NCBI GenBank assembly: GCA_965205265.1
Contig: CBDBGH010000003.1
Span: 832,001-896,000, forward strand
Direction of reading: 5' to 3'
DNA: 64,000 nucleotides
From: Alphaproteobacteria bacterium
Lineage (GTDB): Bacteria; Pseudomonadota; Alphaproteobacteria; Bin95
Part shown: piece after piece, positions 60,559-63,599 of the stretch
How positions within the stretch are numbered: the stretch's first letter is position 1
Layout: each line of letters starts with the position of its first letter
Translations under genes and position numbers: made by a program
The notes under the pieces: generated by a model
The model's input: the letters and a program-made list of their open reading frames with translations, nothing else
What the model was told of the DNA's origin: nothing
Databases searched by the model: none

Positions 60559-62325
60559 GTGAGCGACGCCGGGCCCGGGGAACGCGAAAGCGTACGCTAC
60601 CAGCCGGACGAAAGCCCGCCTCTGCCGATTGCGGCTGCCCTGGGCTCTCAGTATGCGATCCTCATCATCGCGCGGATCGTGGTCGTTCCCGTCGTGATCG
60701 TGCGGGCGGCCGGCGGCAGCGAGGCCGATCTTTCCTGGGTCCTGTTCGCCGCGATCGCGGTCTGCGGCGTCACCACCATGATGCAGGCGCTCAGATTCGG
60801 CCGCCTCGGATCCGGTTACGTCGCCGTGATGGGCACATCGCTTGCGGTGGTCGGCGTGGGCGTCACGGCGGTGGCCGAAGGCGGCCTGCCTCTGCTCGCT
60901 ACCCTGGTGCTCTTTGCATCTGCGGTTCCGCTGGCATTGTCCTTCCGGCTTACACTGTTTCGCAAGGTTCTCACTCCGACCGTCTCGGGCACGGTCATCA
61001 TGCTGATCCCGGCCACCCTGATGCCATCGGCCTTCGGGCTGTTGACGGATGTGCCGGCCGGCACGCCGGACGCGGCCGCCCCGCTATGCGCCGGTGCGGC
61101 GCTGCTCGTCATCGTTGTCACCACGCTGGAGGGAACCGCCCGGATGCGTCTCTGGTCTCCGGTGATCGGGGTGATCGCGGGTTGCCTGGTGGCCCTTTAT
61201 TTCGGCCTCTACGACGCGAACGCCGTCTTCGCGGCGTCGTGGATCGGCTTTCCGGTCGCTGGCTGGCCTGGCCTCGATCTGGACTTCGGGACGGCGTTCT
61301 GGGCGCTTCTTCCCGCATTCGTGCTGGTAGCCCTGATCGAGAGCGTGCAGACGATCAGTTGCGCCGTCGCCGTTCAGCGCGCCTCCTGGCGCCGGCCGCG
61401 CGCGGTGGATTTCCGGGCGGTCCAGGGCGCAGCGGCGACCGCCGGCGTCGGCAACATGCTGGCCGGCATCGCAGGCACGGTTCCGAACACCCTGCTTTCG
61501 ACCAGCGCGGCGGTGACGGACCTGACCGGCGCCGCCGCGCGGCGCATCGGCGTTGCCGCCGGTGCGGTGTTCATTGCCATGGCGTTCCTGCCCAAGGTTC
61601 GCGCTGCGGTTCTGGCGATACCGGGTCCGGTCGTCTCGGCCTATCTGTTCGTATTGATGACCGCGCTGTTCGTTCTGGGCATGAAGATGGTCGTCCAGGG
61701 CGGCGTCGATTACCGCAAGGGCCTGATCGCAGGCGCCGGGTTCTGGGCGGGCGTCGGCTTCCAATACGGCGCGATATTCCCGGAGTTCACCCGTGAGTTT
61801 GCGGGCGGCCTGCTGCAAAGCGGCGTCACCGCGGGCGGCCTCGTGGCCATTCTGTTGACCCTGTTCACGGAGGCGACGAAGTCCCGTCCGAGCCGGATAA
61901 GGACAGTTTGCGATATTGAGGCGTTGCCGGAGATCCGGGAATTCCTGGCCGCATTCGCCTCCCGCAGCGGCTGGGGCGAGGCGATGGCGCGCCGTCTCGA
62001 CGCCGTCGCGGAGGAGATGGTGCTGACGCTCCTCGACCGTAGCGAGGACCGCCGGGGCCCCGAGCGCCGGAGCCTGTCGCTGACGGCCCGCAGGGAGGAC
62101 GGCCGGGCGGTCCTGGAGATAGTCGCCGCTCCCGGGGACGGCAATCTCGAGGACCGCATTGCGCTGCTCGGCGAAGCCGAGACCGAAACGCCGACAGAGC
62201 GGGAGATATCGCTCCGGCTACTGCGGCATCTCGCGTCCTCGATTCGCCACGAACAGTATCGCGACGCCGAATTCGTGACCCTCCGCGTCGATGCTCCGGA
62301 CGGGCGTTCCGGCGCCCGGTCCTGA
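60559..62325 (+). CDS. NCS2 (xanthine/uracil permease-like) protein fused to a degenerate RsbW-like HATPase domain
   Basis: N-terminal ~440 aa: YQPDESPP, GRLGSGY, TPTVSGTVIMLI, FLPK, IPGPV; C-terminal ~135 aa with HATPase_c_2-like layout (LPEIREFL...EEMVLTL...LRLLRHLA). Confidence 0.8.
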   Translation: MSDAGPGERESVRYQPDESPPLPIAAALGSQYAILIIARIVVVPVVIVRAAGGSEADLSWVLFAAIAVCGVTTMMQALRFGRLGSGYVAVMGTSLAVVGVGVTAVAEGGLPLLATLVLFASAVPLALSFRLTLFRKVLTPTVSGTVIMLIPATLMPSAFGLLTDVPAGTPDAAAPLCAGAALLVIVVTTLEGTARMRLWSPVIGVIAGCLVALYFGLYDANAVFAASWIGFPVAGWPGLDLDFGTAFWALLPAFVLVALIESVQTISCAVAVQRASWRRPRAVDFRAVQGAAATAGVGNMLAGIAGTVPNTLLSTSAAVTDLTGAAARRIGVAAGAVFIAMAFLPKVRAAVLAIPGPVVSAYLFVLMTALFVLGMKMVVQGGVDYRKGLIAGAGFWAGVGFQYGAIFPEFTREFAGGLLQSGVTAGGLVAILLTLFTEATKSRPSRIRTVCDIEALPEIREFLAAFASRSGWGEAMARRLDAVAEEMVLTLLDRSEDRRGPERRSLSLTARREDGRAVLEIVAAPGDGNLEDRIALLGEAETETPTEREISLRLLRHLASSIRHEQYRDAEFVTLRVDAPDGRSGARS

Positions 62326-62350
62326 ACCGGGGGAGCGACTGTGTTGTCGG

Positions 62351-63283
62351 TCAAGCAGTTTTCCATGGGGTTCGGTCTCTGAGGATGGCGTTGAGGATTG
62401 TGAGGAGCTTTCGCATGACGGCGGTGAGGGCGGCCTTTTTGGTTTTCCCTTCAGCGATCAGATGGCGATAGAAGTGTTTGATGGTTGGGTTGTATCTGGC
62501 AGCGGTGAGGGCTGCCATGTAGAGGGTTGTGCGGACGTGGGCGCGCCCTCCCGATATGGCTCTCTTGCCGCGCATTTTGCCGCTGTCGCGGTTGAAGGGC
62601 GCGACGCCGACGAGGGCGGCGATGCGCCTTCGGGTGAGGGTTCCGAGTTCCGGGAGATCGGCGATCAGGGTTCGCGCGGTGGTGTCGCCAATGCCGGGGA
62701 CGCTTTTGAGGAGGTCCTCGGCCTGGCGCCATGCGGGGCTTTTTCGGATGGCGTCGCCGAGTTCGGTTTCAAGGTCGGAGAGTTCGCGCTGCAGGGTGGC
62801 GAGCACGCGGTCGACGCTGCGGATCGTGCGACGGCTTGCGAGGCGCTTCCTGCGGTTTCTCTCAGCAGTCATCATCGCAACGACCTGGCGCCGCCGGGCG
62901 ACCAGCTCGGCAAGCGCGCGGGCCTGCTCATCGGGCACCGGACGGGCCTCGGGGCGGACCGCCTCGGCGAACTGTGCGATCGCCGCCGCATCGAGGGTGT
63001 CGGTTTTGGCGAGCCGGCCGGTAGCGCGGGCGAAGTCCCGGATCTGGCGCGGGTTGACCACCGCCAACGGCAGGCCGGCCGCGCAGAGCGCCGCCGCAAC
63101 CGTGACCTCGAAGCCGCCGGTTGCCTCCAGCACCGCCAGGGCGACCTCCAGACCGCCCAGCCGCGCCGTCAACTCTTCCAGGCCTTTGCCGTCGCGCGCG
63201 ACGGCAAAGGCCTCCCCGGACGGGCGCAGATGCACATCCAGACGGTCCTTCGCCACATCGATCCCAACGAAAATCTGTTCCAT
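62351..63283 (-). CDS. IS110 family DEDD recombinase/transposase
   Basis: [23 protein letters not shown] (DEDD), SVPGIG, DSGK (catalytic Ser), [14 protein letters not shown]. Confidence 0.95.
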
Positions 63284-63450
63284 GTCCCTTCCTTGCAAAT
63301 GCGGTCTCGCAGAGCGGACCAAGCGACTGTTCGGGTTCAGGGGAACAGCGGACGGGGAACCATGCTCCCCCGCGGTCTTCGACACCTGGGCCGGTTCGGT
63401 CTCCCGTCCGCTTCCGTGGCCGCGACTATAGCCGCAACAACGAACCGCCG
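63284..63450 (-). ncRNA. Predicted IS110 bridge RNA
   Basis: 5' hairpin plus two stem-enclosed internal loops whose sequences match the target flanks and the donor junction (see findings); ends approximate. Confidence 0.78.
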
Positions 63451-63599
63451 AGATACAAGCGCCGGTTGCGGTCCCCCGTTGCGGCGCGGGCCATGTCGAT
63501 TGCTTTCTTGCGCAAGCGTCTGGAGCCGCTTCTAACCTGCGCTCGAATTCAGCATGATTGTTCCGCCGCGCCCGTAGCGGTTTCTACAAGGAGCCTGCG

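Follow-up and report, generated by a model that had tools for sequence, protein, structure and literature searches.

We asked whether a stretch of about 1.2 kb on the minus strand of an alphaproteobacterial contig is an intact, RNA-guided insertion sequence or something that only resembles one. The DNA in question, here called the window, is 64,000 nt long (Alphaproteobacteria bacterium, assembly GCA_965205265.1, contig CBDBGH010000003.1, positions 832,001 to 896,000), and all coordinates below are positions in the window. An initial annotation made from the letters and open reading frames alone (the sequence-only reading) had described a complete bridge-recombination unit of the IS110/IS621 type. 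We are highly confident that the element is indeed an intact and recently mobile IS110-group insertion sequence of the IS621 type with a bridge RNA. The protein family, a covarying two-loop RNA, the matches between guides and DNA, their covariation across relatives and an empty allele all agree on this description, and every string and coordinate that had been listed was found in the sequence. We observed the anatomy, the guide/flank matches, the reprogramming and covariation, the empty allele and the catalytic residues directly in the sequences compared. The sequence-only reading had added that the class is described and the mechanism not new, and both the IS110-group class and its mechanism are indeed published.

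Ends, second copy and empty allele of the element

The body of the insertion sequence spans 1,122 bp (62336..63457, minus strand, as are all features of the element) and has no terminal inverted repeats. Its limits follow from an identical second copy and from a contig that skips it (see below). Two copies of a CT core bound it: the left one (63458..63459) joins the left target to the left end, and the two genomic copies diverge just outside it, while the right one (62334..62335) was placed by comparing the flanks of both copies and by the same contig. On the minus strand the left junction reads ...CAACCGGCG (63468-63460), CT (63459-63458), TGTATCT (63457-63451), and the right junction reads ACAGTCG (62342-62336), CT (62335-62334), CCCCCGG (62333-62327). 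Extended, the junctions are ...CAACCGGCG-CT-TGTATCTCGG... (63468-63448) and ...CAACACAGTCG-CT-CCCCCGGTTC... (62346-62324), and the element ends TGTATCTCGG... and ...CAACACAGTCG show no inverted-repeat relation. Between the cores lie a non-coding left end of 174 nt (63457-63284), an open reading frame of 310 codons (63283-62351) and a right end of 15 bases. With a long left end that carries the RNA region and a short right end, the reverse of the IS1111 arrangement, the element belongs to the IS110 group.

The same genome (G000) contains a second copy (copy B, G000:C3:4157642-4158777) that is 100% identical to the window copy (copy A) over 1,136 bases. Its flanks, GCGAGGCC-CT-[element]-CT-CCCCCGCAAGCGGG, show a site unrelated to that of copy A with the same right target. 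CT is present at both junctions of both copies. In copy A, four letters (CGCT) are common to the last bases of the left flank and of the element; in copy B this is true of CT only, so that the core is fixed as CT.

For the empty-allele test, contigs of four public sequencing runs were placed on 62000-63800. One run (X4) contains an 895-base contig (depth 6) that aligns to 62009-62333 and then directly to 63458-63800. The skipped segment, 62334-63457, measures 1124 bases, i.e. 1122 + 2, and four letters fit on either side. The contig carries 17 differences from the window, none of them in 62181-62333 or 63458-63532. Its empty site reads ...AACCGGCG-CT-CCCCCGG... on the minus strand, with a single CT; the empty target that had been predicted from the occupied site is thus found in a natural strain, 62333 being joined to 63458 through one CT. 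The X4 strain is ∼97-98% identical to the window in the flanks, and pieces of the element also occur in this run; the element thus sits elsewhere in that strain. A search for empty alleles by synteny in 40 relatives (whole window locus) and 20 relatives (copy-B locus) returned none that was readable, because the two flanks of either copy are not adjacent in these relatives. Likewise, stretches of two genomes (G005 and G007) compared with the copy-B locus gave only repeat-level matches.

The recombinase

The recombinase gene (62351..63283) encodes 310 aa with a DEDD, RuvC-like domain at the N-terminus (PF01548, E 5.2e-23) and a Tnp domain at the C-terminus (PF02371, E 1.9e-20). The protein passed the NCBIfam equivalog NF033542, 'IS110 family RNA-guided transposase', at 220.9 bits (cut-off 140). 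It matched ISCro4 (9t56) over its full length (E 4.2e-40), and its residues 4-307 aligned with the IS621 structure 8wt6 (E 7.7e-41, 143.8 bits). The catalytic residues of IS621 are D11, E60, D102, D105 and S241 (PMC11208158); D9, E53, D95, D98 and S234 stand opposite them in the window protein (the chain numbering in PDB 8wt6 is offset by 2 relative to the named IS621 residues). With an open reading frame and all five catalytic residues aligned with IS621, the protein is as intact as it had first appeared. It had also been called compact, a label that we would drop: 310 aa is close to the short end yet inside the range of around 300-460 aa given for the family (PMC11208160), and the IS621 chain in PDB has 328 residues.

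The right target guide and its natural reprogramming

If the left end encodes a bridge RNA, its target loop should follow the insertion site. The right target guide (RTG), CGGGGGAG at 63365..63372, is the reverse complement of CT+CCCCCG and matches 8/8 in both copies, so that copy B, at an unrelated site, agrees with the loop as copy A does. The sequence-only reading had counted a 9-mer, CGGGGGAGC (63372-63364), as 9/9. Eight of these bases hold as guide; the ninth, C 63364, is by its position part of the handshake guide discussed below.

We then compared the element with a sister element in the congener G005, which has 91% DNA identity and at least 13 copies, seven of which were examined with their flanks. 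The ends, donor guides and stems are the same in both. The target loop differs: its 5' side reads GAACCGGCCCA in the window element and GCTAGCACCCA in G005, and on its 3' side the RTG reads CGGGGGAG versus CGGGAGAG, a single change from G to A. At the right site, both copies in the window genome have CT-CCCCC whereas 7/7 G005 sites have CT-CTCCC, a change from C to T. One base change in the RNA is therefore matched by the complementary base change in the DNA, indicating natural reprogramming between sister elements. This is the cleanest single case of guide/target covariation.

The sequence-only reading had proposed guide/flank covariation among homologues as a check, and the wider family agrees with it. 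From 380 confirmed protein relatives (one genome per species), the best 80 loci, mostly from Alphaproteobacteria, were used. A parser anchored on conserved motifs of the stems could read 81 of the 90 loci and copies, yielding both loop sides, both flanks and the donor guide; of the nine left unparsed, four were without the donor-loop motif and five without the target-loop motif. When sites with the same guide pair were reduced to a single one, 42 programmes with both flanks remained. At positions RT+1 to RT+5 of the right target, the flank agreed with the reverse complement of the RTG in 40, 39, 41, 38 and 40 of the 42 programmes, respectively. RT+6 matches in only 6/42, though it is matched in the window element; thus the right target guide is the core plus five bases, and the sixth match in the window follows no family rule. 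The mean match of the right flank was 4.86/6 compared to 2.45 with permuted flanks, a value reached by none of 10,000 permutations.

The donor guides

The left donor guide (LDG), ACAGTCGCT at 63322..63330, is identical to the right end plus core (9/9). Of the 81 parsed relatives and copies, 69 contain the 7-mer of their own LDG again >800 nt downstream, followed by CT (in this search the guide itself was used to find the element end). The LDG core reads CC instead of CT in 18/52 relatives, which indicates that C opposite the core T is tolerated among them.

The right donor guide (RDG), AUUUGCAAG at 63292..63300, includes TGCAAG (63297-63292) and pairs discontiguously with CT+TGTAT, with a two-U bulge and one G:T. 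The order is two paired bases, two flipped-out U, the G:T and four pairs. In IS621, A157-U158 and C162-G165 of the RDG are paired, U159-U160 are flipped out and G161 faces T12 (PMC11208158). Across 52 sequences, the complementarity of RDG and left end holds in 99.4% of cells (7 pairs).

Structure of the putative bridge RNA

The structure was examined in an alignment of 52 distinct left ends (A1), from which one G005 copy (L047) was excluded for its rearranged left end. RNAalifold returned 29 consensus pairs on A1, with compensatory changes in 14. In a second test, a pairing written from the IS621 layout was scored on the same alignment. The covariation score of the whole structure was 0.274 compared to 0.137 in shuffles (reached by 0/500), and pairings with slid partners scored ≤0.129.

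The basal stem of the target-binding loop is formed by GCGGACGGGAGACC (63398..63411) and GGTTCCCCGTCCGC (63348..63361): 12 of its 14 pairs show compensatory changes and 96.8% of cells are paired. The distal stem-loop of the target loop (GGU/ACC, 63374..63386), found in the lone fold as well as in the consensus, has two G-C pairs in 52/52 sequences and a third pair that is GU-A or G-C according to subgroup. In the donor-binding loop, the distal stem (63302..63321, 5 pairs) is paired in 96.2% of cells and the basal stem in 90.0%; one distal pair is G-C in 36 sequences and U-A in 15. A 5' stem-loop of 8 bp with the loop UAUA (63419..63438) appears in the single-sequence fold, which also reproduces the GCGGACGGGAGACC/GGTTCCCCGTCCGC stem. 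Treated as fixed alignment columns, this hairpin is paired in only 47.5% of cells across the 52 relatives, probably because two subgroups align differently there.

One further signal lies in the donor loop: the base two positions 5' of the LDG covaries with the fifth guide base (A1 columns 143/148; A-U in 40 sequences, G-C in 9), and RNAalifold draws a mini-helix there. The signal may reflect either a genuine contact or just the division into clades.

In Rfam release 15, no family scored above its gathering score and no bridge-RNA family matched. A sub-threshold match to sX15 (RF02234) lies at 63277-63428 on the plus strand, antisense to the bridge RNA (29.8 bits vs 55, E 0.018). sX15 and asX7 are complementary plasmid sRNAs of Xanthomonas campestris pv. 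vesicatoria with 10 homologues in the Stenotrophomonas maltophilia chromosome (PMC3300014). Such a pattern is in keeping with an insertion sequence. The two sRNAs may therefore represent the left end of an IS110-family element, and one of the two strands may be its bridge RNA.

Target sites in the genome

Next, we asked what kind of site the target loop is tuned to. The genome has 68.1% G+C, and CTCCCCCG occurs 280 times in it. The right flank of copy B, CT-CCCCCGCAAGCGGGAGAGGGG, is one arm of an imperfect palindrome, and among the unoccupied core+CCCCC sites the best left matches are CCGGCC-CT-CCCCCGCAAGCGGGA (one site) and CCCGGC-CT-CCCCCGCAAGCGGGG (three sites). The site of copy A is a different small palindrome, AACCGG...CCGGTT. 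Given the hairpin flank of copy B and the best unoccupied sites, the programmed target appears to be the 5' arm of GC-rich, REP-like hairpins of the form ...CCGGC(C)-CT-CCCCCGCAAGCGGG..., and the guide appears tuned to this arm. The view that the element has its own GC-rich target programme holds in this respect, as the RTG reads CT+CCCCC, a GC-rich hairpin arm. REP-type targets are known for other IS110 elements (Tobes and Pareja 2006, cited in PMC11208160).

Around copy B (L002, G000:C3:4156142-4160277), ∼350 bases to the left and 200 to the right consist of short dispersed repeats of ∼70-120 bases. They are 80-95% identical, have many copies in this genome and in congeners, and include palindromes of the CCTCTCCCCGCTTGCGGGGAGAGG type.

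A candidate junction promoter and the proposed cycle

IS621 is reported to rebuild a sigma-70-type promoter at its circle junction (PMC11208160, PMC11208158). In the window element, TTGACC (62349..62354, overlapping the TGA stop) is a candidate -35 box and TATCTC (63450..63455) a candidate -10 box, and the two would come to lie 17 bp apart once the ends join through one CT. TTGAC is found at a fixed distance from the right end in 52/54 distinct relatives, and TATCTC is in place in 30/54. The joined ends would probably form a junction promoter.

The following cycle can be proposed, for which we infer the transcription and promoter, the binding of RNA by protein and the strand-exchange chemistry from IS621. 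On excision, the element would circularize, with a single CT linking its right end to its left end. The circle junction would set TTGACC at promoter distance from TATCTC and so probably drive transcription of the left end, yielding a bridge RNA of about 160-175 nt with the 5' hairpin and two stem-loops with internal loops. The donor loop would read the circle junction and the target loop the insertion site, and tetramers of the 310-aa DEDD/Ser recombinase would then exchange strands at the CT core.

The left target guide and the handshake positions

How well does the left half of the target agree with this scheme? The left target guide (LTG) region, GAACCGGCCCA at 63387..63397, contains AACCGGCCCA (63396-63387, minus strand), and a comparison of three registers singled out none for it. 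The sequence-only reading had AACCGGC matching the left target. As a 7-mer it does equal LT-8 to LT-2 of copy A, but it ends one base before the core, where the DNA has G (LT-1) and the RNA C. Consequently, the statement that all four guide segments match stands for the LDG (9/9), the RTG (8/8) and the RDG (paired as in IS621), but not for the LTG, which matches at 7/8 here.

In register R0, copy A matches at 6/7 (7/8 with LT-8), copy B at 4/7 and the G005 sites at 1-2/7; in register R1, the values are 3/7, 2/7 and 3-4/7. Across the family, the left flanks do carry a signal, with a mean match of 4.53/7 in the best of three registers compared to 3.46 when permuted (reached by 0/10,000). In most relatives the longest exact match of loop and flank includes a literal CT and stops one base short of the distal stem. 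The distance from match end to distal stem is one base in 25 sites, zero in 19 and two in 7, and many of the zero cases arise only from where GGGG was cut. The window RNA has CCCA where other elements have CCT-N.

Handshake positions lie directly 3' of both core guides. In IS621, each core guide is followed on its 3' side by two such bases, which pair with the other DNA once strands have been exchanged; handshake bases that pair with their own DNA block strand exchange in vitro (PMC11208158). In the window element, the target-loop handshake guide (CA, 63363..63364), assigned its role by position from IS621, has a C that complements the last G of the left donor, and the G of the donor-loop handshake guide (GA, 63290..63291) would pair with C at LT-1. 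All 52 relatives have C directly 3' of the target-loop core guide and G as the last left-donor base, and directly 3' of the donor-loop core guide 49 have G and three have A. LT-1 was compared at 68 distinct left junctions: 62 have C, five have T and a single one has G. Two of the three relatives with the A handshake have T at this position. Copy B has C at LT-1 and copy A has G (63460).

Several observations count against an intact, mobile element with a bridge RNA. The only G at LT-1 among the 68 junctions is that of the window copy. Such a G would be complementary to the handshake base of the target loop itself and mismatched with that of the donor loop, so that copy A would be in a configuration unfavourable for IS621; the match of C 63364 to it is the exception among the 68 junctions. 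The LTG matches copy B at only 4/8, its core-guide bases are CC/CA and not CT, the best ungapped register of both window copies is one base off that of the sister element, and the G005 sites match at just 3-4/7 even in their better register. The lone-sequence fold of the left end is no more stable than shuffles (z = -0.31); it joins three bases of the LTG to three of the RTG and leaves the LDG only partly unpaired, and the mini-helix that RNAalifold draws in the consensus (3 bp) occupies three LDG bases. The placement of the guides in unpaired loops, as first described, therefore rests on the consensus of 52 sequences and not on the lone fold, in which the guide bases are partly paired. Moreover, the candidate -10 box is a poor match to TATAAT, and of the 24 listed public runs that contain the stretch, none is on record as RNA. 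Finally, the empty allele comes from one assembled contig of a single run (depth 6), not from raw reads, and the relatives in the covariation tests are kin, so that the permutation counts overstate their independence.

Alternative explanations

What could account for the left-target details? One proposal, which we consider unlikely, is that in this alphaproteobacterial subfamily the left-target half is read loosely and in a sliding register. Sites would then be set mainly by the core and five right-target bases, by the handshake base and perhaps by a REP-like hairpin. Across elements the core guides read CC, CA and TT besides CT, and zero to two bases separate the end of the longest exact match from the loop-closing stem. 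In this proposal, the G at LT-1 of copy A would point to a second insertion route (half-match or single-strand) or to a different handshake rule.

Could the element instead be a fixed relic, a once mobile IS110 member that is now inactive and whose RNA-like end is a fossil? The presence of only two copies in the genome, the imperfect LTG at both sites, the G at LT-1 of copy A (an unproductive configuration in IS621) and the lack of RNA evidence would fit such a relic. However, both copies are identical over 1,136 bases, the reading frame is open with the five catalytic residues in place, and the stems, guides and candidate -35 box are intact. Furthermore, the site is polymorphic, as the 97-98%-identical X4 strain has the empty allele and carries the element elsewhere. 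We therefore regard inactivation as very unlikely.

It is more improbable still that the left end is a cis-regulatory 5' leader or an antisense-controlled region of the recombinase mRNA, with the flank matches a by-product of a preference for REP-like sites. The 3' strand of the donor loop does overlap the ribosome-binding site and the start codon, the sub-threshold sX15 match lies on the opposite strand and Xanthomonas sX15 has the complementary partner asX7. The targets are also hairpin arms, and recognition by ISPpu10 is aided by a stem-loop in the target (10.64898/2026.03.19.712850). Such a leader does not account for a one-base change in the loop that tracks a one-base change in the site between sister elements, nor for the agreement of five right-target positions with the loop in 38-41 of the 42 programmes, whose targets differ widely. 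In addition, the same layout has been proven experimentally to guide IS621 recombination, and the two proteins align end to end (PMC11208160, PMC11208158).

Chance was gauged by mononucleotide (200,000) and dinucleotide (20,000) shuffles of the 174-nt left end. A 9-mer equal to the right end plus core arose in 121/200,000 and 2/20,000 shuffles, respectively, an 8-mer complementary to the core plus right target in 2,620/200,000 and 308/20,000, and a 7-mer equal to the left target in 3,185/200,000 and 494/20,000; the LDG 9-mer and the RTG 8-mer occurred jointly in 1/200,000 mononucleotide shuffles. Thus, even in a genome of this G+C content, with its 280 occurrences of CTCCCCCG and an unexceptional fold energy, chance matches are refuted by the joint shuffles, the sister-element switch, the family permutations and the empty allele.

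Relation to known elements

An intact IS621-type insertion sequence with a bridge RNA thus remains our reading of the locus, and its closest characterized model is IS621 of Escherichia coli. The two have in common both protein domains, the five catalytic residues, the CT core, an RNA (predicted here) in the left end upstream of the gene and the succession of 5' hairpin, target loop and donor loop. They also share an RDG (AUUUGCAAG here) with a two-U bulge and a G:T against CT+TGTAT, the handshake positions directly 3' of both core guides and, as a candidate here, a -35 box in the right end (PMC11208158, PMC11208160). As to differences, the window protein is only distantly similar to that of IS621 (143.8 bits, E 7.7e-41) and has 16 residues fewer than native IS621. 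The RTG of the window element is longer, core plus 5 (here 6) compared to core plus 2 in the wild type, its LTG core guide is CC/CA and not CT, and its target is a GC-rich hairpin arm. The left donor also differs, being ACAGTCG in the window compared to ACAGTAT, the string given for IS621 in the sequence-only reading.

The elements of G005 (91%) and of a second relative, G011 (81%), have the same ends, donor guides, stems and loop lengths as the window element and differ in their target loops and sites. In G011 the loop reads GGATTCCCCTT / TGGATGAG with the site TTTCCCC-CT-CATCC, and in G005 it reads GCTAGCACCCA / CGGGAGAG with sites ..(G)CAC-CT-CTCCC. ISPpu9 and ISPpu10 of Pseudomonas putida, also of the IS110 family, have REPs or stem-loops as targets and insert beside or inside GC-rich palindromic intergenic repeats (PMC12288879, 10.64898/2026.03.19.712850). 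Copy B and several of the best unoccupied sites, at ...CT-CCCCCGCAAGCGGG... hairpins, resemble this preference, whereas the site of copy A is a different small palindrome. Finally, the elements of the IS1111 group, or seekRNA elements, have the same recombinase family and the RNA-guided principle, but their right end is long and encodes the RNA, and their inverted repeats are subterminal (PMC11208160), in contrast to the left end of 174 nt and right end of 15 nt seen here.

Genomic surroundings and other copies

The element occupies a 1.2-kb intergenic gap, which would be ∼110 bp without it, between two plus-strand genes. On one side, a 588-aa membrane-protein ORF (60559-62325) ends 9 bases from the right core. 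On the other, the ORF at 63558-63998 has an N-terminus resembling that of a gamma-glutamyltransferase. This latter gene is 82-90% conserved in congeners, and the intergenic DNA is not conserved.

Four of the at least 13 G005 copies (C3:1141024-1142106, C2:1294671-1295734, C3:1707003-1708063 and C2:1147413-1148473; L041 and L047-L049) lack the first 48-80 bases of the left end and are thus without the left terminus and the 5' hairpin, with both loops kept. Two of the four share the same breakpoint and the same upstream sequence; all four are truncated or rearranged. Weak DNA matches (68-75%) to the recombinase gene also occur on a 193-kb contig of the window genome, at G000:C1:141694-141762 and C1:102060-102183 (L005 and L006), and suggest that further, distant IS110-family genes are present there. 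Two runs carrying the labels of other organisms (X5 and X6) contain 0.67 and 0.64 of the sampled words, which is near the 0.62 of the 1,801-base query that the element makes up; the element may therefore occur in other species.

Significance

For specialists, the element is an expected member of a family that has been surveyed in the thousands, with thousands of IS110 elements reconstructed in one survey (PMC11208160). Its value lies in its complete natural documentation and in a few details of how the left target is read. The documentation comprises the occupied and the empty allele, a second copy, a sister element in which one guide base and one target base have changed together, and ∼40 guide programmes, which define the positions that are read as the core and RT+1 to RT+5, not RT+6. 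To the family it adds a GC-rich target programme with a natural RTG longer than that of wild-type IS621, and it leaves the known mechanism unchanged. As bridge recombinases are being mined as programmable DNA-insertion tools, each natural orthologue whose RNA, donor and target are defined, including the one described here, is a usable start.

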